Of a stretch of DNA of 64,000 bases, positions 1-39,971 are shown piece after piece. A program made the position numbers and the translations under genes. Source of the stretch: Dendronephthya gigantea (Eukaryota); the NCBI RefSeq assembly GCF_004324835.1, contig NW_021163311.1:10208-74207 (forward strand), given 5' to 3'. How positions within the stretch are numbered: position 1 is the stretch's first letter; each line of letters begins with the position of its first letter. The notes under the pieces were generated by a model that was not told where the DNA came from, did no database searches, and was given only the letters and a program-made list of their open reading frames with translations.

Positions 1-99
1 TCAAACCTCGATACCGAGTGATAGCGAGGTCAATACGGCACGACCTCGGTTTGATATTTTACCGTACAGACCTCACTCTCAGTCAGTAACTTCTTATTA

Positions 100-1000
100 A
101 AAGACATATAAGGAAGGGTCAAGGGTGTAGGGAAGGGTCAAGGGTGTATGGAAGGGGGGACTATACAGGAGGTTAAATTGATAGAGGGTCTATTAGAGAA
201 GAGGTATATAAAGGAAAGGCTATATTAGGGAGGGAGTATGGGGGAGGGGTTATTTTAGAGAGTTATTTTAGAGGTGTATTATAGTCATGAGGGACATTCT
301 ACTAGGGAGGGGTATAAAGAGAGGGTTATTTTGGAGTACTATTTAGAGACTGGAGTATTAGAGAAGTATATTAAAGAAGGGTATACTTACAGGGTGGGGT
401 ATAAAGAGCAGGTTATTTTAAGAGTATTATTTAGAGACTAGAGTATTAGAGAAGTATATATTAGAGAGAGGTATACTTATAGGGTGGGGGTATAAAGAGG
501 GGGTTATTTTGGAGTATTATTTAGAGACTGGAATATTACAAAAGTATATATTAGAGTGAGGTATACTTATAGGGTGGGGTATAAAGAGGGGTTATTTTAA
601 GAGTATTATTTAGAGACTGGAAGATTAGAGAAGTATATGTTAGAGAGAGGTATACTTATAGGGAGGGGTACAGGAAAGGAGTTGTTAGAGTGTTAATTGG
701 AAAGGGACATTACAGAATAGGTATGAAGGCACATTAATTGGGAGGGGCATGAAGAGGGAATTGTTATAGGGGGTTAATCAGAGAGAGGGTTTTTCTGTAA
801 GAGAGAAATCCTGCAAAGGAGGGGTATGTGGAAGGAATTGTTATAGATGGAGAGTTAGTTGAAGAGAGGGTGGGAGGGAGAAATATACAGAAGGGTTTAG
901 AGTCAGACAACTGGAGAGAGGGGTTTTTAAAGAAGATTGAGGTGTATTTGTGAGGGATATACTATGGAAAGGTATAAAGAAATGGTTATCACAGTGGGGA
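100..1000. repeat. Purine-rich (GA/GGGA) strand-asymmetric satellite; contains a ~93-bp tandem unit x4 at about 300-665
   Basis: The + strand is almost free of C. The block ggggtataaagag..gggttattttggagtattatttagagactggagtattagagaagtatatattagagagaggtatacttatagggtg recurs 4 times. Confidence 0.8.
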
Positions 1001-1030
1001 TGGATTGGAGGTATTTATTGAGGGTGTGTA

Positions 1031-1846
1031 TTAAACCAGGAAGAACACTAAAAAGAGAGTGGTCACATCATTGAGAGGTTTATGAAAGATCTCGTCACCA
1101 CCTGATTGTTCAGATTCACCATCTTCATCTTCGTCATCCTGTGTCAGTTTCACTTTCGTCAAACCATCATTCGCATTGTAAGTTGCATCAACTGAGATCT
1201 GACCAGATTTCTGAACAGCATGAATGACGCTGTGGTTCATCTCTGCATTCTAAAAAAAGTTTCAGATCTCTGAATGTCAGACTGATTGTCGACTGATGGC
1301 AATTTAAACACTGAGAATTCTGAGAATCATCTGAAAAATCCTGGAAACTGTCCATGAGTGAGAATTCACGTAAGTTTGGGTCAGGTTTTAGTGGAGAAAG
1401 ATGGCTTTGAAAAATGTCTTAAAATATCATTTTATCAAGATTCAGACACTGTGATATTCTGAGATGAACTGACTCAAGCAAGACAAGCTGTATCATAATC
1501 TATCTCAGATTTACTATAACGAAGATGGTCGCTTTAAACATCAAAATCCCGAACTAAAAAAAACCTCATTTATAAAATCATTTAAACATTTCACAGTAAA
1601 GCTTTCGTTATTTCTTTGAAAATTGTTATATAAATCACATTAAAAGCTTGATATTTTCCTAAAAATCACTCACCCCGAGTGTTAATTCATCGGGTAATTC
1701 TCGACCGGCAAAAATGATTTTAATTCCAGCAGTTTTGACATTTTTCTTGCGAGCGATTTCGTGTTTTAGTTGAGCGATTGTCCAGGATGGTTGAAACGAA
1801 GGTTAAATGATTTGCCGTTGAAGTTTACGGTCACGTCGTGCGACAT
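1031..1846 (-). pseudogene. Two-exon fragment encoding a ubiquitin-like (Parkin-type UBL) N-terminus plus acidic linker; copy 1, frameshifted
   Basis: ATG lies at 1846 on the minus strand, giving MSHDVTVNFNGKSFNL. The frame then slips at gaaacg, which is 1 nt shorter than in copy 2. It continues ..FQPSWTIAQLKHEIARKKNVKTAGIKIIFAGRELPDELTLG with a GTGAGT donor at ~1673. The next acceptor is ttttttag at ~1250, followed by NAEMNHSVIHAVQKSGQ..DDEDEDGESEQSGGDE. IIFAG+EL and SVIHAVQ resemble Parkin VIFAGKEL and SIVHIVQ. Confidence 0.4.
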
Positions 1847-1974
1847 ATTTCGCTAGAAAAGCTCGTGTATTTCCTTGCAATTGAGAGAAAATAATTCAAA
1901 ATATTTTGCTTCAAAACGAAAGTTTGGAAAAGAAATGTTTGAAAATTGAAAGTTTAAAACGACGGTTGCTTCCA

Positions 1975-2465
1975 CTTACCAAAACAAACTTCCTCCTTTT
2001 TTCTTGAAATTTCACTCCCTTGCAGTTTTCTGATCTCTTGGGACACTGGAATGTTTAGCGTTTTCTATCTTGGCAATCAACATAATTCCACAGATTAGGT
2101 TAGGATTAGGTTTAAATTTAGGATTAGGTTCAACCCTCTTTAACAATAAACCTAAAACCTAATCTTAACCCAAATCGTAACATAATCTCAAATAATAAAT
2201 AAGTCTGAGGGATAGTTTTTTTCAACTCATTAACTACCAAAACAAACTTCCTCTTTAATTCCCTTGAAATTTCACTCCCTGACAGTTTTCTGATCTTTCG
2301 ATACACTGGATGTTTAGCATTTTCTATGTTGGCAGTATTATTCCATTTAATCCTTCAGATTAGGTTAGGATTAGGGTTAAAATTAGGAATAAGTTTAACC
2401 GTATTAAACTATAAACCTAAAACATAATCTTAAGATAATTCCTAACATAATCCCACAGATTAAAT
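1975..2465. repeat. Two tandem copies of a ~245-bp element containing telomere-like TTAGG/TTAGGG tracts and inverted CCTAA tracts
   Basis: gattaggttaggattaggtttaaatttaggattaggtt ... aacctaaaacctaatcttaaccc is seen twice, at ~2093-2200 and ~2354-2460. The shared flank is ccaaaacaaacttcctc..ttgaaatttcactccctgacagttttctgat. Confidence 0.7.
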
Positions 2466-2819
2466 TCGTGTATTTAGGATTTAGGGAACATGGAGTTTTA
2501 TATTAAAAACTATCGCAGCATCGTCAGCACTTTTGAAAGTGTAAATTCGCATTTTAATAAAACAAGTTAAAGCTTTTAGAGTCAACTTAAATTACTGCAA
2601 AATAACATTTCTCAAAAATCTCTTGAAAATATCAGAAAAATGTTTAATTCGCCTCCAGTTCTCTCTCTCAGCTCGCGATATTTTGAAATTTATTTAGGGA
2701 AACACCGCAGCAAATTCCAGGAATTCCTAAGTCCTGACAGGAAAGGACGCGTCTTATGCAAACACTTTATAAGGAAGAGATATTTGTCTTTATAAACTGA
2801 TCATTTTGGAGAAGATTTC

Positions 2820-2957
2820 GAGAAAATACAAACACAGACTTCTCCAAGAACGAACACTGTATCTATATTCAGTCTATACAGCGAGGTTTATACTACAGAG
2901 CGACAAACAACACAGAACTTGCTTTATTATTACGACACAAGAACGACGTGAAATAAT
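2820..2957 (+). promoter_or_regulatory. Conserved ~135-bp leader or proximal promoter immediately 5' of the RING-TRAF-Kelch ATG (gene 1)
   Basis: agaaaatacaaacacagacttct.caagaacgaacactgtatctatattcagtctatacagcgaggtttatactacagagcgacaaacaacacagaacttgctttattattacgacacaagaacgacgtgaaat is conserved before every full-length copy. A TATA-like ctttataaggaagag lies ~60 bp further upstream. Confidence 0.5.
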
Positions 2958-4598
2958 ATGGCTTCATATATACAAGGCTATGATGAAGAAAGGTTTGTGG
3001 ACAAAATCAATCAAAATTTTCATTGCCAGATTTGCTTTAATGTCTTGAAAGAGCCGGTTATGTGTTCGAGAAACCAGCATTCGTTTTGCCGTTGTTGTAT
3101 TACGAAACATCTGGAAAATTCTCAAACATGTCCAACGTGTGCTGATGAACTGACCGCAGAGACTTTATCCGAACCGAATAGAATGGTTAAAGATTTTTTG
3201 AATGAATCAAAAATTCGTTGCGTTTACATCGACAGAGGTTGTCAAGAAGTTGTAGAATTACAGCATCTTGACCGCCATGAAGATACATGTGGATATACAC
3301 CAGCCGTTTGTACAAACCAAGGCTGTGGTTTAATTGTCAACAAGCGTGATCTTATTCACCATGAAAGTGAAGTCTGTGAATTCCGAAAGTTGAAGTGTCA
3401 CTCGTGCCGAGAAATGACGAAAACTTTCGCAGATATGGAGGAAAGAATGGCGAATATCGAGAAGAATATGGTAACAAATAAAACAGTTGAAACTAAAATA
3501 ACCAATTTGGAGAAAAATATTGCCACTGTTGCGAATAATATGGAGAAAAACACCGCAGATATAAAAGTAGATATGGAAGGAAAACACGAAGCGGTTAACA
3601 ACAAAGTCGATGGATTGAAAACAGCTTTGGTCAGAGCTTTTGATGATATGAAGGACGTTCTTATCACGATGGAGGGCAAGAAAGTAGAAAACACAAGAAA
3701 AGTAATAAATAGACCAAGTGGTGATAAGGAAAATATAATTGTTGCTGGAGGTTTATTGACTAGCTCTGTAGAGATGTTTAACTGGCGTCAAAGAACATGG
3801 TCGCCATTACAATCAATGCCAAAGAAACGTTTGGTAGCAACTTCATTTATTTATAACAATCATATGACTATAGCTGGGGGTTGCTGTGGTGGGTCTGTCA
3901 TTGTTGATGATATGATTAGAATGAATATTGACCCAAACCTTGATCTCACAACACACTGGAGTGACTGTCCTGTTAAACTACCTGATAAGTTGGAATACCA
4001 CAGCAGTGTGCTGTATAATGATCAGTTGATAGTCTCTGGAGGTCGTAATAAAAATGTTTCATCTGACTTGATGAGAGCAGTCCAGCTTGTTCCTTTCTAT
4101 ACTGTGAAGACCTTATCAAGAATGCCAGAACCTAGACAAGGTCACAGCATGGAAATATTTGATGATAATTTGTTGATAGTTGGTGGAAGTACAACTGACA
4201 ATTACAAAGACAGCCTCAGCAGTGTCGTACTGTACGATATAAAGAAGAATCAGCTGAAACAGTTGTCACCACTGCCGTATGAAGTGAGGCACATGGCAAC
4301 TGTAAGATGGGGAGAAAACATTGTTGTTATTGGTGGCGTTGACAAACATGGCAAGGCATTAGATACAGTTATCATTTACAATGTCAAGACAGAACAAAGT
4401 CACATGCTGCCATCAATGAGATGTAAGAGGTGTGGATGTACTGCAGTTGTTATTGCAAACAACATTGTAGTCCTGGGAGGGAACGGTGAGCGAACAACAC
4501 TGAAGTCAGTTGAAGGTTTCAACTTTGAAAGGTATTCTTGGGAAGAACTTCCAGAAATGTCTGAAGCAAGATACTTGCACACTGCTGTTGTTGCGTGA
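2958..4598 (+). CDS. RING(C3HC4) - TRAF-type zinc finger - coiled coil - 6x Kelch protein, copy 1 (546 aa, intronless)
   Basis: Uninterrupted ATG-to-stop ORF. RING: CQICFNVL..C.RNQHSFCRCCITKHL..CPTC. TRAF-type zinc fingers: CVYIDRGC..HLDRHEDTC, CTNQGCG..HHESEVC. Coiled coil is K/E-rich with heptads. Six Kelch blades carry GG doublets: IIVAGG, MTIAGG, LIVSGG, LLIVGG, IVVIGG, IVVLGG. Confidence 0.9.
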   Translation: MASYIQGYDEERFVDKINQNFHCQICFNVLKEPVMCSRNQHSFCRCCITKHLENSQTCPTCADELTAETLSEPNRMVKDFLNESKIRCVYIDRGCQEVVELQHLDRHEDTCGYTPAVCTNQGCGLIVNKRDLIHHESEVCEFRKLKCHSCREMTKTFADMEERMANIEKNMVTNKTVETKITNLEKNIATVANNMEKNTADIKVDMEGKHEAVNNKVDGLKTALVRAFDDMKDVLITMEGKKVENTRKVINRPSGDKENIIVAGGLLTSSVEMFNWRQRTWSPLQSMPKKRLVATSFIYNNHMTIAGGCCGGSVIVDDMIRMNIDPNLDLTTHWSDCPVKLPDKLEYHSSVLYNDQLIVSGGRNKNVSSDLMRAVQLVPFYTVKTLSRMPEPRQGHSMEIFDDNLLIVGGSTTDNYKDSLSSVVLYDIKKNQLKQLSPLPYEVRHMATVRWGENIVVIGGVDKHGKALDTVIIYNVKTEQSHMLPSMRCKRCGCTAVVIANNIVVLGGNGERTTLKSVEGFNFERYSWEELPEMSEARYLHTAVVA

Positions 4599-5149
4599 AC
4601 AATATGTAAGGTATTAAGTGAAAACTCCTAACATATTATGAACAATTAAAATTAACTATAAGATTTTCACAAAGTTATAGAAATAGATTGTAGCATTCTA
4701 AGTTGATTGTCAGACATATACTGATTTGTATTTTTGTGATTGAATTTAAATTGAGTCAGTTTTTAGAATTATATATTAAAGAACAATAACAAATCTGTGA
4801 AATAAATATTTTCATTGAGGAAGGTTTAAAATGAAACATCAAATAAAAGATTTCAAACAATAGGTAGGTGCATGAGTGAAAAAAATTTGATTAAATATTG
4901 ACCATGTTGGATCAAAGTTATTAGTTTCTATTAACTGCGGTTTGGATTAAAAAATTCAACTTTCTAGAAGATAAATATTTCTGAGAGAAACGTAAAATGA
5001 AAGGGTAAACTTACGATGTTTCAGAGCATGTGATGAGGGAATATTTCTGATGTTAGATTTCAACATTGATAACGGTGCCTGTTCATCTCTCCATGATGTT
5101 CCCCACATTTGAAATAAAATTCCTTGAAAGAACAAGAAGTTTGTGATGA

Positions 5150-5292
5150 CCTACTTTAGTATTTTACCGTATAATGTCAGGTAATTTTACTCATCAGTGG
5201 AAGAGTACTGTCAGTTAATAAGTTAACAAACTAATATCTGTCAGTGTCTCTTGTTAACCCATTAGTTGCAATGCACCTAGATGTGACCCACT
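5150..5292 (-). repeat. Single diverged monomer of the 136-bp satellite (inverted orientation)
   Basis: Reverse complement of ..tgacagtactcttccactgatgagtaaaat..taggtcacatctgggtgcattgcaagctaatgggttaacaagagacact. Confidence 0.7.
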
Positions 5293-5739
5293 ATTGTATT
5301 TTAGGTCTAATAGGTGGATAACTTACAGCTGTTTTTCCCTGACAGTTTGTATTGGATTCACATTGTCCCTGCATTCGGCCTTTGATCAATACATCGTCCC
5401 AACCATTTGGACCCTTGCAAGAAACCATAAATATTGTGTAAACAAGATGTTTGTTGGCATTCAAAAGCTTTCACAGGAAGCTTGTAAACAAGTTGTAACA
5501 ATGTCAACATTTTATAAAGTCTAAATATAAATCTGCTGCAGATTTTTTACAAGTTGTTTATAAGGAAACAGTAAATACCTGTGATAGAACAAAGCTTCCT
5601 TCCTTGCAATTTGAACATCGACATCGCAATTTTCCTTGTGTTAGTTTCTTGCAAGTTTTACAATAAACAAAGAAGAAACTTTGCTTGCCTGAGATGAAAG
5701 AGTACAAAAAGTTTGGATTATTAAAGGAGCCCTGGTGTT

Positions 5740-6600
5740 AGAGAGATGAGCTTATTAGAAAGAGAGAGGCCTAATATTAGAGAGAGAGGGGCTTATTAGA
5801 GAGAGAGAGGGGCTTATTAGAGAGAGAGGGGCTTTTTAGAGAGAGAGGGGCTTATTAGAGAGAGAGGGGCTTTTTAGAGAGAGAGGGGCTTATTAAAGAG
5901 AGAGGGGCTTATTTGAGAGAGAGTGGTTTATTAGGGAGAGAGGGTGGGTCTTCATGGATGAAGTATAATATGATTAGGGGGGAAGGCAGGGTAGAGAACC
6001 CTCTACCCAGGGTTTCTCCATGAGGAAAATGCAAGGGTATCAAGCTGGGGATAGGAGTTTATTGGAGATAGACAATTAGAGAAGTGGTACAGTACTGTGT
6101 TAGAGGACATCCAGGTAAGGGGGTATGGGCAAGGGTGGGTTGGGTTAATTGGAAAAAGGGGTTTTAGAGAGGAGGCATATTAGAAAGGGCATGCTAGTAG
6201 GGAAGGGTATAGGGGATTGGCTAGAGAGGGTTAATTAGAGAGGGAAATAAGGAAAGAGGTACATTAGGGAGGGGCATACTATTAGGGAAGAGAATAGAGA
6301 ATAATTTGAGGGTTAATTAGAGAGGAATATTGGAGAAGAGGTACATTAGGGAAGGGCATAATCATGACAGAGGGGAATAGAGTGATTTGAGGGTTATTTA
6401 GAGATGGCTATTGAAAGGATATTTTATAGAGAACAAACCAGAGAAAGGGTTATTGGAAAAGAGGTGTATTAGACAGGATTGCAATACAAGGAACAGAAAT
6501 TATTATAGTGGATTAACTAGAGAGAGGTTTATCAGGAAAGAGGTTTATCAAATCAGGTCATATCAGAGAGGGAGAGGAACGAGGGTGAACATAGCGGGAA
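5740..6600. repeat. Purine-rich satellite; includes the ~19-bp unit gagagagaggggcttatta x~10 at 5745-5935
   Basis: Strand-asymmetric GA-rich composition that parallels 100-1000 one array unit upstream. Confidence 0.8.
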
Positions 6601-6619
6601 CATATTGGAGGTATTTATT

Positions 6620-7445
6620 GAGGGTGTAAAATTAGGAGGGGGATTAAACAGGGTGGGGTCACATTATTATCTAGAGGTTTATGAAAGATCTCGTCACAAC
6701 CTGATTGTTCAGATTCACCGTCTTCATCCTCGTCATCCTGTGTCAGTTTACTTTCGTCAAACCATCATTCGCATTGTAAGTTGCATCAACTGAGATCTGA
6801 CCAGATTTCTGAACAGCATGAATGACGCTGTGGTTCATCTCTGCATTCTAAAAAAAACAGTTTCAGATCTCGAATGTCAGACTCATTGTCGACTGATGGT
6901 AATTGAAAGACTGAGAATTTGAGAATCCTCTGAAAAATCCTGGAAACTGTCCATGAGTGAGAATTCACATAAGTTTGGTCAGGTTTTAGTGAAAAAGATG
7001 GCTTTGAAAAATGTCTTAAAAATATTTTATAAATTCAGACACTGTGATATTCTGAGATGGACTGACTCAAGCAAGACAAGCTGTATCATAATCTATCTCA
7101 GATTTACTATAACGAAGATGGTCGCTTTAAACATCAAAATCCCGAACTAAAAAAACCTCATTTATGAAATCATTTCAACATTTCACAGTAAATCTTTCGT
7201 TATTTCTTTGAAAATTGTTATATAAATCACATTAAAAGCTTGATATTTTCCTAAAAATCACTCACCCCGAGTGTTAATTATCGGGTAATTCTCGACCGGC
7301 AAAAATGATTTTAATTCCAGCAGTTTTGACATTTTTCTTGCGAGCAATTTCCCGTTTTAGTTGAGCGATTGTCCAGGATGGTTGAAAACGAAGGTTAAAT
7401 GATTTGCCGTTGAAGTTTACGGTCACGTCGTGCGACATATTTCGC
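6620..7445 (-). pseudogene. UBL (Parkin-like) two-exon fragment, copy 2, with a premature stop
   Basis: ATG at 7445 on the minus strand gives an intact MSHDVTVNFNGKSFNLRFQPSWTIAQLKREIARKKNVKTAGIKIIFAGRELPDN*. A 1-nt deletion (cccgataattaac versus cccgatgaattaac in copy 1) creates the stop. The second exon-like segment at ~6620-6850 matches 1031-1250. Confidence 0.4.
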
Positions 7446-7564
7446 TAGAAAAGCTCGTGTATTTCCTTGCAATTGAGAGAAAATAATTCAAAATATTTTG
7501 CTTCAAAACGAAAGTTTGGAAAAGAAATGTTTGAAAATTGAAAGTTTAAAACGACGATTGCTTC

Positions 7565-8050
7565 CACTTACCAAAACAAACTTCCTCTTTTTTCCTTGAA
7601 CTTTTCACTCCCTGGCAGTTTTCTGATCTCTTGAAACACTAGAGTGTTTAGTGTTTTCTATTTTGGCAATCAATATAATTCCAGAGATTAGATTAGGATT
7701 AGGGTTAAATTTAGGATTAGGTTTAACCTCTATTTAACAATAAACCTAAGACCAAATCTTAACCCAAATCGTAACATAATCTCAAATAATAAATAAGTCT
7801 GAGGGATAGTTTTTTTAACTCATCAACAGCCAAAACAAACTTCCTCTTTGTCTTGAAATTTCACTCCCTGACAGTTTTCTGATATCACGATAAACTGGAT
7901 GTTTAGCGTCTTTTATGTTGGCAGTATTATTCCATTTAATCCTTCAGATTAGGTTAGGATTAGGGTTAAAATTAGGAATGAGTCTCACCCTATTAAACTT
8001 TAAACCTAAAACATAATCTTAACCCAATTCCTAACATAATCCCAAAGATT
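7565..8050. repeat. Second copy of the 2x245-bp telomere-like repeat element
   Basis: Same TTAGG/CCTAA-bearing duplicated element as 1975-2465. Confidence 0.7.
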
Positions 8051-8410
8051 GAATTCGTGTATTTAGGATTTAGTGAACATGGAGTTTTATATTAAAAACT
8101 ATCGCAGCATCGTGAGCACTTTTGAAAGTGTAAATTCGCATTTTAATAGAACAAGTTAAAGCTTTTAGAGTCGACTTTAATTACTGCAAAATAACATTTC
8201 TCTAAAATCTACTGAAAATAAAAGAAAAATGTTTAATTCTGCTCCAGCTCTCTCTCAGTCAGCTCCCGACATTTTCAAATTCATTTTTGGAAACACCGCA
8301 GCAAATTCCAGGAATTCCTGAGTCCTGACAGGAAAGGACGCGTCTTATGCAAACACTTTATAAGGAAGAGATATTTGTCTTCATAAACTGATAATTTTGG
8401 AGAAGATTTC

Positions 8411-8545
8411 GAGAAAATACAAACACAGACATCTTCAAGAACGAACACTGTATCTATATTCAGTCTATACAGCGAGGTTTATACTACAGAGCTACAAACA
8501 ACACCGAATTTGCTTTATTATTACGACACAAGAACGGCGTGAAAT
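8411..8545 (+). promoter_or_regulatory. Conserved leader or proximal promoter of gene 2
   Basis: Same conserved ~135 bp as 2820-2957. Confidence 0.5.
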
Positions 8546-10156
8546 ATGGCTTCATATATACAAGGCTACGATGAAGAAAGGTTTGTGAACCAAATCGATC
8601 GAAATTTTCATTGTCAGATTTGCTTCAACGTCTTGAAAGAGCCGGTTATGTGTTCCAGAAACCAACATTCTTTTTGCCGTTGTTGTATTACGAAACATCT
8701 GGAAAATTCTCAAACATGCCCAACGTGTGCTGATGAACTGACCGTAGAGACTTTGGCCGAAGCACCGCGAATGGTTAAAGATTTTTTGAATGAATCCAAA
8801 ATTCGTTGCGTTTACATCGACAGAGGTTGTCAAGAAGTTGTAGAATTACAGCATCTTGACCGCCATGAAGATACATGTGGATATACACCAGCCGTTTGTA
8901 CAAACCAAGGCTGTGGTTTAATTGTCAACAAGCGTGATCTTATTCACCATGAAAGTGAAGTCTGTGAATTCCGAAAGTTGAAGTGTCACTCGTGCGGAGA
9001 AATGACCAAAACTTTGGCAGATATGGAGGAAAGAATGGCGAATATCGACAAGAATAATGTAACGATTGAAACTAAAATCACAAATTTAGAGAGAAACGTT
9101 GAAAAAAACACGGCAGATATAAAAGCAGATATGGAAGGAAAACTCGAAGCGGTTAAAAACGAAGTCAAAGGATTGAAAACAGCTTTGGTCAGAGCTTTTG
9201 ATGAAATGAAGGACGTTCTCATCACGATGGACGGCAAGAAAGAAGAAAACACAAGAAAAGTAAGAAATAGACCAAGTGGTGATAAGGAAAATATAATTGT
9301 TGCTGGAGGTCATTGGACTAACTCTGTAGAGATGTTTAACTGGCGTCAAAGAACATGGTCGCCATTACAATCAATGCCAAACTATCGTCATGGAGCAACT
9401 TCATTTATTTATAACAATCATATGACTATAGCTGGGGGTTGGTGTGATTTGTCTGACATTGTTGATGATATGATTAGAATGAATATTGACCCAAACCCTG
9501 ATCTCTCAACACACTGGAGTGACTGTCCTGTTAAACTACCTCATAAGTTGAGATACCACAGCAGTGTGCTGTATAATGATCAGTTGATAGTCTTTGGAGG
9601 TGAAAAGAGAAATGTTTCATATGACCTGATCAGAGCAGTCCAGCTTGTTCCTCCCTATACTGTGAAGACCTTATCAAGAATGCCAGAACCAAGGCATGGT
9701 CACAGCATGGAATTATTTGATGATAATTTGTTGATAGTTGGTGGAACTACAACTGGTTATAACAAAGACAACCTGAGCAGTGTCACACTGTACAATATTA
9801 AGAAGAATGAGTTGAAACAGTTGTCACCACTGCCGTATGAAGTGAATCACATGGCAACTGTGAGATGGGGAGACAACATTGTTGTTATTGGTGGTGATGA
9901 CAAACATGGCAACAGATTAGATACAGTTATCATTTACAATGTCAAGACAGAACAAAGTCACATCCTGCCATCAATGAGATGTAAGAGGTTTGGATGTACT
10001 GCAGTTGTTATTGAAAACAACATTGTAGTCCTGGGAGGGTGTGGTCAATTTTTCCCCCTGAAGTCAGTTGAAGGTTTCAACTTTGAAAGGTATTCTTGGG
10101 AAGAACTTCCAGAAATGTCTGAAGCAAGATACTTGCACACTGCTGTTGTTGTGTGA
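8546..10156 (+). CDS. RING-TRAF-Kelch protein, copy 2 (536 aa)
   Basis: Intact ORF with the same domain order as copy 1. It differs mainly in the Kelch loop patches and has a short coiled-coil indel. Confidence 0.9.
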   Translation: MASYIQGYDEERFVNQIDRNFHCQICFNVLKEPVMCSRNQHSFCRCCITKHLENSQTCPTCADELTVETLAEAPRMVKDFLNESKIRCVYIDRGCQEVVELQHLDRHEDTCGYTPAVCTNQGCGLIVNKRDLIHHESEVCEFRKLKCHSCGEMTKTLADMEERMANIDKNNVTIETKITNLERNVEKNTADIKADMEGKLEAVKNEVKGLKTALVRAFDEMKDVLITMDGKKEENTRKVRNRPSGDKENIIVAGGHWTNSVEMFNWRQRTWSPLQSMPNYRHGATSFIYNNHMTIAGGWCDLSDIVDDMIRMNIDPNPDLSTHWSDCPVKLPHKLRYHSSVLYNDQLIVFGGEKRNVSYDLIRAVQLVPPYTVKTLSRMPEPRHGHSMELFDDNLLIVGGTTTGYNKDNLSSVTLYNIKKNELKQLSPLPYEVNHMATVRWGDNIVVIGGDDKHGNRLDTVIIYNVKTEQSHILPSMRCKRFGCTAVVIENNIVVLGGCGQFFPLKSVEGFNFERYSWEELPEMSEARYLHTAVVV

Positions 10157-10424
10157 ACAATATGTAAGGTATTAAGTGAAAACTCCTAACATATTATGAA
10201 CATTTGAAATGAACTATAAGATTTTCGCAAAGTTATAGAAATAGATTGTAGCATTCTAAGTTGATTGTCAGACATATACTGATTTGTATTTTTGTGATTG
10301 AATTTAAATTGTGTCAGTTCTTAGGATTATATATTAAAAAACAATAACAAATCTTTAAAATAGATATTTTCATTGAGGATGGTTTAAATTAAAACATGAA
10401 ATAAAAAAGTTGAAATAAGCTTTT

Positions 10425-11129: not shown

Positions 11130-12065
11130 TTGGCAAGATAGGGCAAGATAGAAGAAAACACAAGAAAAGTAAGAAATAGACCAAGTGGTGATAAGGAAAA
11201 TATAATTGTTGCTGGAGGTTTAGGAATTAACTCTGTAGAGATGTTTAACTGGCGTCAAAGAACATGGTCGCCATTACAATCAATGCCAAAGGATCGTGAA
11301 GGAGCGACTTCATTTATTTATAACAATCATATGACTATAGCTGGGGGTGACTGTGGTGGGTCTGACATTGTTGATGATATGATTAGAATGAATATTGACC
11401 CAAACCCTGATCTCTCAACACACTGGAGTGGCTGTCCTGTTAAACTACCTGATAAGTTGAGATTCCACAGCAGTGTGCTGTATAATGATCAGTTGATAGT
11501 CTCTGGAGGTGAAAAGAGAAAAGTTTCATCTGACTTGATCAGAGCAGTCCAGCTTGTTCCTCCCTATACTGCGAAGACCTTATCAAGAATGCCAGAACCA
11601 AGACAAGGTCACAGCATGGAAATATTTGATGATAATTTGTTGATAGTTGGTGGAAAAACAACTGACACTCTCAAAGACAACCTCAGCAGTGTCGTACTGT
11701 ATGATGTAAAGAAGAATGAGCTGAAACAGTTGTCACCACTCCCGTATGAAGTGAGTCACATGGCAACTGTGAGATGGGGAGACAACATTGTTGTTATTGG
11801 TGGAATTGACAAACAATGCAAGACATTAGATACAGTTGTCATTTACAATGTCAAGACAGAACAAAGTCACATGCTGCCATCAATGAGATTTAAGAGGTGG
11901 GGATGTACTGCAGTTGTTATTGAAAACAACATTGTAGTCCTGGGAGGGTATGGTGAGGTAGGAAAGCTGAAGTCAGTTGAAGGTTTCAACTTTGAAAGGT
12001 TATCTTGGGAAGAACTTCCAGAAATGTCTAAATCAAGATGGTGGCCCACTGCTGTTGCTGTGTGA
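11130..12065 (+). pseudogene. 5'-truncated RING-TRAF-Kelch copy 3 (Kelch half only)
   Basis: Homology begins mid-gene at ..gaagaaaacacaagaaaagtaagaaatagaccaagtggtgataaggaaaat.., which encodes ..EENTRKVRNRPSGDKENIIVAGG. The spacer hairpin sequence ..gccactattggcaag is fused directly to the gene at the shared ggcaag (microhomology deletion). The RING and TRAF parts are absent. Confidence 0.8.
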
Positions 12066-12334
12066 ACAATATGTAAGGTATTAAGTGAAAACGCCTAACA
12101 TATTATGAACAATTGAAATGAACTATCACATTTTTGACAAAGTTATAGAAATAGATTGCAGCATTCTAAGTTGATTGTGAGACATATACTGATTTGTATT
12201 TTTGTTTTTGAATTTAAATTGTGTCAGTTCTTAGGATTATATATTAAAGAACAATAACAAATCTTTGAAATAGATATTTTCATTGAGGAAGGTTTAAAAT
12301 GAAACACAAAATAAAACATTTGAAATAATATTTT

Positions 12335-14177: not shown

Positions 14178-14605
14178 CAGATCTTCGCAGCAAATGGTGT
14201 CAAGACAGAATTCCCTGGTTTGCAAATTATGTCGACGCCATTGTGTGTACGAGAACCTCTGTATAATGATAAATTCACGTTAATTTAATTGTTTTGTAAG
14301 ATTATAAGAATATTATCGATTCGCTGTCTTGCTACAAGCTTACATCTGGTCTTACCTTGGTGTTCCGAAATCACCACAACCCTGACTGTCACATTCACGG
14401 ATTAAATTTCTACCATTTGAGCTGCAAAGCTGACCAAGTTTAAAACATTCAACCGTATTATCTAGAAAAATAAATACAGAAAAATACGATGAAGAATAAC
14501 GAAGTGATACTTGAGAATTCTACGAACAAAGATATATATCACAATATGTATTCCAGTACCTTCAAAGACTAGGAATATAACAACGATCTTAACAACTCCA
14601 AAAAT
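14178..14605 (-). pseudogene. Small secreted Cys-rich 3-exon gene E, inactivated copy (start codon lost)
   Basis: Exons 2 (14356-14461) and 3 (~14178-14259) are conserved. The exon-1 ATG is mutated (aaagatttttggag versus aaagatgtttggag in the other copies). Confidence 0.45.
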
Positions 14606-15040: not shown

Positions 15041-15304
15041 ATTAGGAAAATACAAACTATTTCTTGGTATAAAGTATCTTTTTCTTCGAACTTATTTCCA
15101 TATAATGAAATAAGAAATTCCTTCCAACATAAACACAACCAATTGCAAGTCAGCATTTGAATAGAAGATGCTGAGCTTTTGTCAGGAGACAATAATAATA
15201 ATATAATTTTTTTATATCACGAATTCCTGTCCACAAAACACTCCTTAAACACTTACGGAAGAGATATTTCTCTGCTGTTCTAAACAGATAATTTTGCCGT
15301 AACG

Positions 15305-15443
15305 ATTTGAGAAAATACAAACACAGACTTCTTCAAGAACGAACACTGTATGTATATTCAGTCTATACAGCGAGGTTTATACTACAGAGCGACAAACAAC
15401 ACAGAACTTGCTTTATTATTACGACATAAGAACGACGTGAAAT
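15305..15443 (+). promoter_or_regulatory. Conserved leader of gene 4, type-B upstream
   Basis: Same proximal ~135 bp. The upstream region is type B (cacgaattcctgtccacaaaacactccttaaacacttacggaagagatatttctctgctg..) and the type-A segment is missing. Confidence 0.5.
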
Positions 15444-17074
15444 ATGGCTTCATATATACAAGGCTACGATGAAGAACGCTTCGAGACCAAAGTCAGTAAA
15501 AATTTCCTTTGTCAGATTTGCTTCAACGTCTTGAAAGAGCCTGTCCTGTGTCCGACAAACCAACATTGTTTTTGCCGTTGTTGTATTACGAAACATCTGG
15601 AAAATTCTCAAACATGTCCAACGTGTGCTGATGAACTGACCGTAGAGACTTTGGGCGAACCCCAAAGAATTGTAAAAGATCTTATAAACGAGTTAAAAAT
15701 TCGTTGCGTTTACATCGACAGAGGTTGTCAAGAGTTGTGGAATTACAGCATCTTGACCGCCATGAAGATACATGTGGATACACACCAGCCGTTTGTACAA
15801 ACCAAGGCTGTGGTTTAATTGTCAACAAGCGTGATCTTATTCACCATGAAAGTGAAGTCTGTGAATTCCGAAAGTTGAAGTGTCACTCGTGCGGAGAAAT
15901 GACGAAAACTTTGGCAGATATGGAGGAAAAAATGGCGAAGAATAATGTAAATATTGAAACTAAAATAACAAATTTAGAGAAAAACGTTGCTACTTTTGCG
16001 AATGATATGGAGAAAAACACCGCAGATATAAAAGCAGATATAAAAGCAGATATGGAAGGAAAACTCGAAGCGGTTAACAACGAAGTCAAAGGATTGAAAA
16101 CAGCTTTGGTCAAAGCTTTTGATGAAATGAAGGACGTTCTTATCACGATGGAGGGCAAGAAAGAAGAAAACACAAGAAAAGTAAGAAATAGACCAAGTGG
16201 TGATAAGGAAAATATAATTGTTGCTGGAGATGTAGCAACTAACTCTGTAGAGATATTTAACTGGCGCCAAAGAACATGGTCGCCATTACAATCAATGCCA
16301 GAGGATCGTTATGGAGCAACTTCATTTACTTATAACAATCATATGACTATAGCTGGGGGTGGCTGTGGTTGGCCTGGCATTGTTGATGATATAATTAGAA
16401 TGAATATTGACCCAAACCCTGATCTCTCAACACACTGGAGTGACTGTCCTGTTAAACTACCTGATAAGTTGAGATACCACAGCAGTGTGCTGTATAATGA
16501 TGAGTTGATACTCTCTGGAGGTGATAATGGAAATGTTTCATCTGACTTGATCAGATCAGTCCAGCTTGTTCCTCCCTATACTGTGAAGACCTTATCAAGA
16601 ATGCCAGAACCGAGACAAGGTCACAGCATGGAAATATTTGATGATAATTTGTTGACAGTTGGTGGAAGTAAAACTGACAGTTACACAGACAACCTCAGCA
16701 GTGTCGTACTGTACGATATAAAGAAGAATGAGCTAAAACAGTTGTCACCACTGCCGTATGAAGTGAGTGCTATGGCAACTGTGAGATGGGGAGACAACCT
16801 TGTTGTTATTGGTGGCGTTGACAAACATGGCAAGACATTAGATACAGTTATCATTTACAATGTCAAGACAAAACAAAGTCACATGCTGCCATCAATGAGA
16901 TGTAAGAGGAGAGGATGCACTGCAGTTGTTATTGAAAACAACATTGTAGTCCTGGGAGGATCTGGTGCAGGAGAACTGAAGTCAGTTGAAGGTTTCAACT
17001 TTGAAAGGTATTCTTGGGAAAAACTTCCAGAAATGTCTAAAGCAAGATGGCGGCACACTGCTGTTGTTGTGTGA
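15444..17074 (+). pseudogene. RING-TRAF-Kelch copy 4, disrupted by a 1-nt deletion (true pseudogene or homopolymer assembly error)
   Basis: caagagttgtggaattacagc here against caagaggttgtggaattacagc in gene 5. The ORF splits into 15444-15818 and 15704-17074. The 5' flank and N-terminal half are otherwise identical to gene 5. Confidence 0.6.
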
Positions 17075-17339
17075 ACAATATGTAAGGTATTAAGTGAAAA
17101 CTCCTAACATATTATGAACAATTGAAATGAACTATAAGATTTTCACAAAGTTATAGAAATAGATTGCAGCATTCTAAGTTGATTGTCAGACATATACTGA
17201 TTTGTATTTTTGTGTTTGAATTTAAATTGTGTCAGTTCTTAGGATTATATATTAAAGAACAATAACAAATCTTTGAAATAGATTTTTTTATTGAGGAAGG
17301 TTTATAATGAAACACAAAATAAAAAATTTGAAATAAGCT

Positions 17340-19138: not shown

Positions 19139-19568
19139 TCAGATCTTCGAAGCAAATGGTGTCATGACAGAACTCCCTGGTTTGCAAATTATGTCGACAC
19201 CATTGTCTGTACGAGAGCCTCTGTATAATGATAAATTCACGTTAATTTACTTGTTTTTGTAAGATTATAAGAATATTATCGATTCGTTGTGTTGCTACAA
19301 GGTTACATCTGGTCTTACCTTGGTGTTCCGAAATCACCACAACCCTGACTGTCACATTCACGGATTAAATTTCTACCATTTGAGCTGCAAAGCTGACCAA
19401 GTTTAAAACATTCAACCGCATTATCTAGAAAAATAAATCCAGAAAAATACGATGAAGAATAACGAAGTGATACTTGAGAATTCTATGAACAAAGATATAT
19501 ATCACAATATGTATTCCAGTACCTGCAAAGACTAGGAATATAACAACGATCTTAACAACTCCAAACAT
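19139..19568 (-). CDS. Gene E: small secreted Cys-rich protein (~77 aa), 3 exons
   Basis: Exons 19523-19568, 19319-19424 and 19139-19221. MFGVVKIVVIFLVFA(G) signal ends at |GTACTG. A 98-nt intron ends ttctag. Then DNAVECFKLGQLCSSNGRNLIRECDSQGCGDFGTPR|GTAAGA. A 97-nt intron ends tacag, followed by RGSRTDNGVDIICKPGSSVMTPFASKI*. Confidence 0.5.
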
Positions 19569-24087: not shown

Positions 24088-24515
24088 TCAAATCTTCGCA
24101 GCAAATGGTGTCATGACAGAAATCCCTGGTTTGCAAATTATGTCGACACCATTGTGTGTACGAGAGCCTCTGTATAATGATAAATTCACGTTAATTTAAT
24201 TGTTTTGTAAGATTATAAGAATATTATCGATTCGCTGTGTTGCTACAAGGTTACATCTGGTCTTACCTTGGTGTTCTGAAATCACCACAACCCTGACTGT
24301 CACATTCACGGATTGAATTTCTACCATTTGAGCTGCAAAGCTGACCAAGTTTAAAACATTCAACCGCATTATCTAGAAAAATAAATCCAGAAAAATACGA
24401 TGAAAATAACGAAGTGATACTTGAGAATTCTATGAACAAAGATATATATCACAATATGTATTCCAGTACCTGCAAAGACTAGGAATATAACAATGATCTT
24501 AACAACTCCAAACAT
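24088..24515 (-). CDS. Gene E copy (small secreted Cys-rich protein, 3 exons)
   Basis: Exons 24470-24515, 24267-24372 and 24088-24169. ATG, GT-AG boundaries and frame are conserved with 19139-19568. Confidence 0.5.
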
Positions 24516-24829
24516 CTTTGATTTGCTAAAATTTAATCTTCTAGCTTGAAATGGCTTTTCATCGATATAATGACCGCACTTATACAGGATGTTTAAAAAA
24601 ACGCAACACTTAATATTTATGAATATTTTGATACGCTATACGATCTTTTGTGATCAAAACGAAAGTTAATTTCATAAACACTTTGAAGTTGCGTTTTTCT
24701 TATTCACCACAGCTGTAGATCAATCCACAAGATATCCTAAACCATTTGTGTGTTGATGAAAACTGATTTAGATTGGAATATTATTCCACCGCGAAAATAT
24801 TCAACTTGACTTAGACAGAGTAAAATACT

Positions 24830-25375
24830 AAAGTAGGTCACATCTGTGTGCATTGCAAGCTAATGGGTTAACAAGAGACACTGACAGATAGTTTTGTTAA
24901 CTTATTAACTGACAGTACTCTTCCACTGATGAGTAAAATCATCTGACATTAGACAGAGTAAAATACTAAAGTAGGTCACAACTGGGTGCATTGCAAGCTA
25001 ATGGGTTAACAAGAGACACTGACAGATAGTTTTGTTAACTTATTATCTGACAGTACTCTTCCACTGATGAGTAAAATCATCTGACATTAGACAGAGTAAA
25101 ATACTAAAGTAGGTCACATCTGGGTGCATTGCAAGCTAATGGGTTAACAAGAGACATTGACAGATAGTTTTGTTAACTTATTAACTGACAGTACTCTTCC
25201 ACTGATGAGTAAATTCATCTGACATTAGACAGAGTAAAATACTAAAGTAGGCCACATCTGGGTGCATTGCAAGCTAATGGGTTAACAAGAGACACTGACA
25301 GATAGTTTTGTTAACTTATTAACTGACAGTACTCTTCCACTGATGAGTAAAATCATCTGACACGATTAGGAAAAA
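24830..25375. repeat. 136-bp satellite, 4 tandem monomers, upstream of gene 6
   Basis: Unit is gacagatagttttgttaacttattaactgacagtactcttccactgatgagtaaaatcatctgacattagacagagtaaaatactaaagtaggtcacatctgggtgcattgcaagctaatgggttaacaagagacact. Confidence 0.85.
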
Positions 25376-29281: not shown

Positions 29282-29710
29282 TCAGATCTTCGCAGCAAAT
29301 GGTGTCATGACAGAACTCCCTGGTTTGCAAATTATGTCGACACCATTGTGTGTACGAGAGCCTCTGTATAATGATAAATTCACGTTAATTTAATTGTTTT
29401 GTAAGATTATAAGAATATTATCGATTCGCTGTGTTGCTACAAGGTTACATCTGGTCTTACCTTGGTGTTCCGAAATCACCACAACCCTGACTGTCACATT
29501 CACGGATTGAATTTCTACCATTTGAGCTGCAAAGCTGACCAAGTTTAAAACATTCAACCGCATTATCTAGAAAAATAAATCCAGAAAAATACGATGAAGA
29601 ATAACGAAGTGATACTTGAGAATTCTATGAACAAAGATATATATCACAATATGTATTCCAGTACCTGCAAAGACTAGGAATATAACAACGATCTTAACAA
29701 CTCCAAACAT
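29282..29710 (-). CDS. Gene E copy (small secreted Cys-rich protein, 3 exons)
   Basis: Exons 29665-29710, 29461-29566 and 29282-29363. ATG is at 29710. Donor is GTACTG and the 98-nt intron ends ctag. Donor GTAAGA is followed by a 97-nt intron ending tacag. The TGA stop is at 29282-29284. Confidence 0.5.

Positions 29711-33038: not shown

Positions 33039-39971
<6,933 letters not shown>

Follow-up and report, generated by a model that had tools for sequence, protein, structure and literature searches.

In the octocoral Dendronephthya gigantea, a family of gene models named "E3 ubiquitin-protein ligase parkin-like" has already been machine-annotated by NCBI, and two further members of this family, designated here copies 1 and 2, lie on the minus strand near the left end of a 64,000-nt stretch of the genome (RefSeq assembly GCF_004324835.1, contig NW_021163311.1, forward-strand positions 10,208 to 74,207; hereafter the window, with coordinates counted from its first letter). 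Copy 2 is a complete five-exon unit of the family, and copy 1 is seen as exons 1 and 2 (E1 and E2) only. The systems with which the two copies can most closely be compared are parkin itself (PRKN), the annotated members of the D. gigantea family, a parkin-like gene of the octocoral Paramuricea clavata, and the non-processed pseudogenes and partial duplicates that arise within tandem duplications. A search of the literature on truncated or multi-copy parkin in octocorals and other cnidarians found nothing relevant.

With parkin, the unit shares a ubiquitin-like domain (UBL) that has the equivalent of Ser65 and the Ile44 patch, a linker, and a RING0 domain with eight zinc ligands, but it lacks the RING1 core, IBR, REP, and RING2. 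The unit is multi-copy, whereas parkin is single-copy, and its head-to-head partner is a RING/TRAF/Kelch gene, whereas the head-to-head partner of human PRKN is, we presume, PACRG. The annotated D. gigantea family members have the same five exons, the same end point, and the same LECT2-like neighbors as the window copies; the window copies differ from them in carrying frameshifting deletions, one in copy 1 and four in copy 2, with the result that the open reading frame (ORF) of ∼210 codons is not intact, and none of the annotated proteins is an exact match to the full unit of copy 1 or copy 2. The Paramuricea parkin-like protein (P0003, 211 aa) is encoded by the same five exons with the same boundaries at 67 to 75% amino acid identity, and the donor of its E5 (C/GTAAGT, with the slash marking the exon boundary) is conserved with that in the window. 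However, it is known from one locus, on a contig of 10.3 kb that stops in satellite 1.37 kb beyond E5, so that its truncation may be a limit of the assembly, and no RING/TRAF/Kelch or LECT2-like neighbor was found in the 5 kb upstream.

The copies also resemble the non-processed pseudogenes and partial duplicates of tandem duplications, in that introns and promoter are kept, the breakpoint appears to be intronic, a neighbor is co-amplified, and some copies are frameshifted or fused. They differ from the usual duplicated pseudogenes in being unusually clean despite frequent frameshifts, and in that a full-length parent was not located. We consider there to be about an even chance that copies 1 and 2 are two neighboring members of a multi-copy set of partial parkin duplicates that are now young, non-processed pseudogenes carried as passengers of a gene array. 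In either case, the two copies are duplicated gene fragments of an ordinary sort, and they do not represent a new type of element.

Both copies derive from the amino-terminal half of parkin

A first reading of the window, made from the sequence alone (the sequence-only reading), had proposed a Parkin-like identity for the UBL, and comparisons with domain and structure databases bore this out. After frame repair, the UBL matched the Pfam ubiquitin family (PF00240) with E values of 1.5e-13 for copy 2 and 1.3e-14 for copy 1, and repaired copy 2 matched the parkin RING0 family (PF17976) with an E value of 1.4e-27. Polyubiquitin chains aside, the best-matching solved structures were the parkins 4k95 (rat; E = 5.7e-36), 4zyn, and 6djw (residues 10-210), whereas the polyubiquitin structures matched the UBL alone. 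The Pfam and PDB E values rule out chance ORFs as an explanation for the coding sequence.

In an alignment of the unit with four full-length parkins and a human sequence, S65, I45, F46, and G48, which make up the Ser65 equivalent and the Ile44 patch, were invariant, and all eight of the RING0 zinc ligands were invariant as well (C117, C120, C132, C135, C162, C168, C179, and H182). In the same alignment, the octocoral sequences ended right after the first CxxC of RING1. The introns of the unit have phases 0, 1, 0, 0, and 2, which we take to be those of human PRKN exons 2 to 6 (164, 241, 122, 84, and 116 nt).

In the whole 64-kb window, no exon of the RBR region (RING1 core, IBR, and RING2) was found by tblastn with nine RBR halves or with a profile hidden Markov model (best E = 0.76). 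Without RING1, IBR, REP, RING2, and the catalytic cysteine, the predicted product could not ligate ubiquitin. A processed (retroposed) pseudogene was rejected, because all four introns are kept with canonical splice sites and the promoter-side flank is duplicated along with the exons. An Rfam scan of the whole window gave no match.

Exon structure and lesions of copies 1 and 2

The two copies of a two-exon UBL block that the sequence-only reading had described are present on the minus strand, with UBL parts that are about 97% identical and with canonical AG/GT splice boundaries in both copies (peptide, MSHDVTVNFNGKSF...IKIIFAGRELPDELTLG joined to NAEMNHSVIHAVQKSG...DDEDEDGESEQS). In copy 1, E1 extends over 1674-1846 (173 nt compared to 174 nt in an intact unit) and E2 over 1102-1249 (148 nt, intact). 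In copy 2, E1 (7266-7438; 173 nt compared to 174 nt intact) provides the ATG and UBL residues 1-58 and ends at the donor GGG/GTGAGT, and E2 (6701-6847; 147 nt compared to 148 nt intact), bounded by the acceptor ttttag/AAT and the donor CAG/GTTGTG, provides the end of the UBL, including NHSVIHAVQ and the Ser65 equivalent, followed by an acidic linker. Residues 1-53 of copy 2 E1 are 100% identical to the family member P0016.

Each copy has the 1-nt deletion in E1 that had been reported earlier, and each is disabled as assembled. In copy 1, a T4-to-T3 deletion within 1789-1798 leads to a stop after 26 codons, and in copy 2, a change of GATGAA to GATAA within 7274-7285 leads to ...PDN-stop after 54 codons. 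The E2 of copy 2 carries a further 1-nt deletion (GTGAAA to GTAAA within 6744-6754) that was absent from the earlier account. The E2 of copy 1 has an in-frame Met (MNHSV...) that serves as the start in the NCBI models P0002 and P0022, and such a start is expected where the E1 of a unit is defective, as it is in copy 1.

Both copies run into a CT-rich satellite on their own strand, as had been noted; this repeat, which is AG rich on the plus strand, meets the copies at about 110-1003 and 5740-6600 according to Tandem Repeats Finder. The accompanying claim that neither copy can be complete past the satellite was wrong for copy 2, in which three RING0 exons follow, down to the end point of the family. 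The presence of exons on both sides identifies the satellite of copy 2 as intron 2 (5689-6700, minus strand), nearly all of which is satellite, with 19-bp units at 5740-5944, ∼82-bp units at 6226-6417, and a strongly positive GC skew.

The three exons beyond it account for the whole of RING0. E3 (5579-5688, minus strand; 110 nt, intact), which lies between the acceptor tcatctcag/GC and the donor CAG/GTATTT, encodes the first part of the domain, (G)KQSFFFVYCKTCKKLTQGKLRCRCSNCKEGSFVLSQ, with four zinc ligands, and is 97% identical to the P0016-type family query and identical to P0010. E4 (5327-5413, minus strand; 87 nt, intact) encodes the second part, GPNGWDDVLIKGRMQGQCESNTNCQGKTA, and is 100% identical to the family sequence. 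E5 (5015-5122, minus strand; 108 nt compared to 110 nt intact) encodes the end of RING0 and the first CxxC of RING1, EFYFKCGEHHG(R)DEQAPLSMLKSNIRNIP(C)ITCSETS, and carries two 1-nt deletions, one within 5084-5095 and the other within 5030-5039. The donor of E5, TC/GTAAGT, is intact at 5009-5016; reading through it gives TCG TAA, with the stop at 5011-5013, which is the end of the 210-aa NCBI models. The 700 bp that follow this exon on the minus strand contain neither AATAAA nor ATTAAA.

In copy 1, the start of intron 2 is AG-rich satellite at 110-1003 (minus strand; ∼90-bp units at 303-670), and no E3, E4, or E5 was found between the satellite and window position 1. At window positions 1-110, the left edge of the copy 1 satellite meets unrelated sequence that contains a short inverted repeat (tcaaacctcg...cctcggtttga). 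This sequence is unlike that before E3 of copy 2, and the downstream structure of copy 1 may differ from that of copy 2.

The intron between E4 and E5 of copy 2 holds ∼157 bp (5147-5303) of a 138-bp satellite in inverted orientation, at 87 to 91% identity. Elsewhere in the window, this satellite is arrayed as 4 units (24807-25362) and as about 20 units (36694-39509). The intron may have received a satellite monomer by insertion, or it may itself be the source of the satellite.

A multi-copy family of parkin-like models in D. gigantea

The proteins closest to the repaired peptide were the D. gigantea parkin-like models, 148 to 297 aa in length, and after frame repair the window exons were 97 to 100% identical to them per exon at the amino acid level. 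Nine or more gene models make up the family, distributed over four scaffolds, of 375850, 133106, 186085, and 40569 bp. The intact members, 210 to 212 aa in length and ending in ...NIPCITCSETS at the read-through stop, are P0001 (XP_028415294/95/97), P0010 (XP_028415293), P0016 (XP_028415298/99), and P0020, and the annotated members that are truncated by frameshifts are P0011, P0012, P0018, and P0019. The NCBI models end either by read-through or by splicing to cryptic or foreign exons, and the foreign fusions involve a LECT2-like gene (P0021), CCDC58/MIX23 (P0007), and LOC114517692 (P0006 and P0023).

In P0006 and P0023, which are on a 3.55-Mb scaffold, it is E2 and E3 that are spliced into LOC114517692, and in P0007, which is on a 483,734-bp scaffold, E4 and E5 are included in CCDC58/MIX23-like isoforms. 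The P0006 copy has several substitutions, some of them at residues next to cysteines, and looks older and more decayed.

The suggestion that the copies are relics captured by the array broadly holds, as both are passengers of a tandem array, but they are neither restricted to the UBL nor unique and belong to an annotated multi-copy family. For annotation, the unit is better described as a five-exon, 3′-truncated parkin duplicate from an annotated but undescribed family than as a UBL-only relic, and the window copies are best labeled pseudogenes or low-quality copies pending read support.

In an exhaustive HMMER search, the full-length parkins P0034 and P0035 were 45 to 46% identical across the whole unit, and no full-length protein was more than 50% identical to it. 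No RBR was found in the D. gigantea models built on the family (15 or more models on 4 or more scaffolds). With the RBR half of P0035 and a nine-sequence RBR alignment as queries, no RBR protein of Dendronephthya or Paramuricea was among the best 120 of 366 matches listed, in a word-index search that is not evidence of absence.

An unrelated parkin contig (L003) likewise has an intron of phase 2 at the position following the first RING1 CxxC. The contigs that correspond to P0168 and P0005 were considered as views of the sequence past E5 and were rejected, as one (L002) is only 788 bp in length and the other (L003) is genomic, with an ORF that reads into the conserved intron.

Proposed origin of the unit

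The unit is a DNA-level copy of the promoter and first five coding exons of parkin, with their introns retained, and it ends in the intron after E5. It was probably co-amplified by unequal crossing-over together with its divergently oriented RING/TRAF/Kelch gene; the duplicated blocks in the window, 1004-4860 and 6604-10418, are 92% identical, and each has the two-exon UBL unit on its minus strand. Other fragments of the unit are dispersed over the genome, where they are joined to genes of unrelated kinds. The chimeric NCBI models suggest that transcripts would end via read-through of the E5 donor or by a splice to a cryptic or foreign exon.

Genuine lesions versus assembly errors, and the missing catalytic half

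For the five deletions, genuine mutation and assembly error are about evenly balanced, and neither simple model fits well. Several observations weigh against decayed copies. All five lesions are 1-nt deletions, with no stops due to substitutions and with splice sites and ATG intact, and repaired copy 2 has essentially no amino acid replacements relative to the intact paralogues, with E3 to E5 identical to P0010. Across E1 and E2, copies 1 and 2 differ by 3.5 synonymous (Sd) and 1.5 nonsynonymous (Nd) differences (dS = 0.054; dN = 0.006), and the resulting dN/dS ratio (omega) of about 0.12, although it reflects only ∼5 changes, is the signature of a selected gene rather than of neutral decay; the dS is close to the neighboring neutral divergence. 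Omega relative to Paramuricea is similarly low, at about 0.10. The ratio of 1-nt indels to substitutions is 8:22 in the UBL block and 138:925 in comparable repeats, an excess of ∼2-fold, with the caution that calibrations of this kind are highly sensitive to how far the compared repeats have diverged. The published D. gigantea assembly was made from PacBio continuous long reads (CLR) with FALCON and Illumina correction, from a highly heterozygous animal (PMC6447388). CLR-type assemblies can leave deletions in near-identical multi-copy DNA, and intact 210-aa paralogues exist. It is a serious possibility, although somewhat short of an even chance, that the five bases were lost through mistakes of assembly or polishing in a near-identical multi-copy segment; copy 2 would then be intact and expressed, probably along with copy 1, and would encode a stand-alone UBL-RING0 protein of 210 aa like XP_028415298. 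However, the five intact 1.6-kb RING/TRAF/Kelch ORFs of the same window have no 1-nt indels, and in the right-hand array, in which units are 95 to 97% identical, ORFs show a 3.8-fold deficit of 1-nt indels (9 in 6194 nt compared to 129 in 23473 nt; p = 4.7e-6), which indicates that the 1-nt indels of this assembly are mostly genuine mutations filtered by selection. Five lesions were seen in the 951 nt of parkin-like exons, compared to ∼0.7 expected from the ORF rate, which is a ceiling for noise, and ∼2.6 expected from the non-coding rate, so that an explanation by error needs a much higher local error rate. Other members of the array are truly decayed, including a 5′-truncated Kelch gene, a frameshifted Kelch gene, and a LECT2-like gene without an ATG, and some annotated family members are likewise truncated by frameshifts, which favors real lesions. 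An intact gene is also difficult to reconcile with the lack of a poly(A) signal after E5 and with the fact that the unit breaks off partway through the zinc-binding domain RING1, an end that resembles a duplication breakpoint rather than a designed protein terminus, and the constraint relative to Paramuricea may stem from a full-length ancestral parkin.

The missing catalytic half invites another explanation, which is that the copies are 5′ cassettes, or the true 5′ end, of a single full-length parkin gene with RBR exons beyond window position 1 and with Kelch genes nested in its large introns. A gene that continues past position 1 had been the second alternative of the sequence-only reading. 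The E5 donor is a perfect splice site that is conserved in Paramuricea, an intron occurs at the same phase-2 position in L003, the NCBI model P0007 splices onward from this donor, no poly(A) signal follows E5 of copy 2, and E3 to E5 of copy 1, if they exist, must be to the left of the window. Nevertheless, neither the 5 kb that follow copy 2 nor the rest of the 64 kb has an RBR exon, no D. gigantea model based on the family reaches an RBR, and no full-length protein is more than 50% identical to the unit; the RBR-based searches, which returned no octocoral protein among the matches listed, point weakly in the same direction. A complete RBR gene that continues to the left of the window, which had been raised as the finding that would overturn a relic interpretation, is thus unsupported by the window and by the family members, although E3 to E5 of copy 1 would be outside the window. 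We regard such a gene as improbable, and a 5′ cassette of a full-length gene is the least likely option for these copies. The narrow version of the sequence-only reading, in which both are UBL-only exon relics that end in satellite with nothing more in the window, fits copy 1 within the window, where E1 and E2 are followed by satellite to about position 110. It is refuted for copy 2 by the exons at 5015-5688, which have canonical splice sites and are 97 to 100% identical to the RING0 exons of the family, and its probability as an account of both copies is close to nil. Young, non-processed pseudogenes remain our preferred reading of the two copies.

An early calibration of indels to substitutions (1:38), taken from array units that are 84 to 94% identical and against which the UBL block appeared 14-fold anomalous, was discarded as biased by divergence; the array that is 95 to 97% identical gives 1:6.7.

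The single-base deletions of copy 2 are mostly of a coding-strand G outside homopolymers, namely, T[G]A (twice), T[G]C, perhaps G[G]A, and, in an intron, CA[G]AA. The intronic 1-nt deletion sites of this copy are near 6918 and 6871. This one-sided spectrum could be due to a systematic consensus error or to a mutational bias.

Possible function

It is doubtful, but conceivable, that octocorals maintain a selected, stand-alone, multi-copy "half-parkin" that consists of a UBL with the serine targeted by PINK1 and RING0 but no RBR, in which case the frameshifts in the window would be assembly errors. Such a family would be co-amplified with, and divergently oriented from, RING/TRAF/Kelch and LECT2-like genes, in arrays whose appearance is of an innate-immunity type, and its product might act as a decoy or adaptor for PINK1 or for UBL receptors or as a trans-acting regulatory module for other E3 ligases. 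The catalytic half might even be lost or unlinked. If the window copies are intact, then their product, with Ser65, the Ile44 patch, and RING0 retained, could serve the PINK1, proteasome, or UBL-binding pathways as a decoy or adaptor. The same data fit young pseudogenes or unpolished long-read errors, and an amplified parkin fragment would be of interest only if intact copies are expressed and selected or if octocorals have no full-length parkin.

Gene neighborhood of the parkin-like units

The window has a base composition of ∼37% GC, is eukaryotic, and has introns of the GT/AG type. The left half is occupied by seven plus-strand genes, arrayed in tandem, that encode a RING domain, a TRAF/Sina zinc finger, a coiled coil, and a Kelch propeller; the ORF is intact in five of the seven (532 to 546 aa), with one of the other two 5′ truncated and one frameshifted. 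Gene 1 (2958-4598, plus strand; 546 aa, intact), which has this full domain set, faces copy 1 head-to-head and lies tail-to-tail to copy 2; its paralogue is gene 2 (8546-10156). The parkin-like copies had been described as antisense to genes 1 and 2. They are on the minus strand, but they are divergent from these genes and do not overlap them, and only read-through from copy 2, the 3′ end of which is ∼420 bp from the gene 1 stop codon, would run antisense to gene 1.

The divergent spacers between copy 1 E1 and gene 1 (1847-2957) and between copy 2 and gene 2 (7439-8545) are each ∼1.1 kb in length, and each contains a tandemly duplicated element of ∼260 bp (1977-2452 and 7571-8046). Cryptic exons of the NCBI models P0002 and P0022 map to the divergent spacer. 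The ∼260-bp element holds runs that resemble TTAGG/TTAGGG (gattaggttaggattagggtt), and in model P0022 a cryptic exon from an element of the spacer type (VSKRSENWQGVKFQGKKMKFVL) links two successive units.

Among the Kelch genes, copy 3 (11140-12330) is a 3′ fragment alone that matches positions 3673-4862 of the gene 1 region, and copy 4 (15247-17336) has a single 1-nt indel in its coding sequence, so that its ORF begins with the TTG at 15704. The remaining five copies differ by 7 to 8% substitutions and have in-frame indels only.

Four LECT2-like ("leukocyte cell-derived chemotaxin-2-like") genes, each with three exons and corresponding to 77-aa models, are present on the minus strand (14180-14605, 19142-19568, 24091-24515, and 29285-29710). 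They alternate with RING/TRAF/Kelch copies 3 to 7, and in array units 4 to 7 a LECT2-like gene lies between the Kelch genes. The one at 29285-29710 is exactly XP_028417478 (P0009) and is the sole exact match to an annotated protein among the four, and the one that begins at 14605 has ATT in place of the ATG start codon. At other D. gigantea loci, a LECT2-like gene comes after the parkin-like unit, and in model P0021 it is fused to the unit.

Other elements in the window

Tandem units of about 4.2 kb, 94.6 to 96.6% identical, make up a separate array that extends over about 41000-62800 and contains three types of small ORF with N termini that resemble signal peptides, beginning with MKKSSFLAHGL... 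(127 to 139 aa), MLLASLLNMFVLKL... (147 to 150 aa), and MTHRMNFKILF... (123 to 126 aa). A 112-aa ORF on the minus strand at 39633-39971 may resemble the first exon of an alanine-glyoxylate/serine-pyruvate aminotransferase. Between the Kelch/LECT2 array and the 138-bp satellite, there are three more satellites, at 33361-33731, 34026-35089, and 35886-36439, with units of 114, 77, and 80 bp, respectively.

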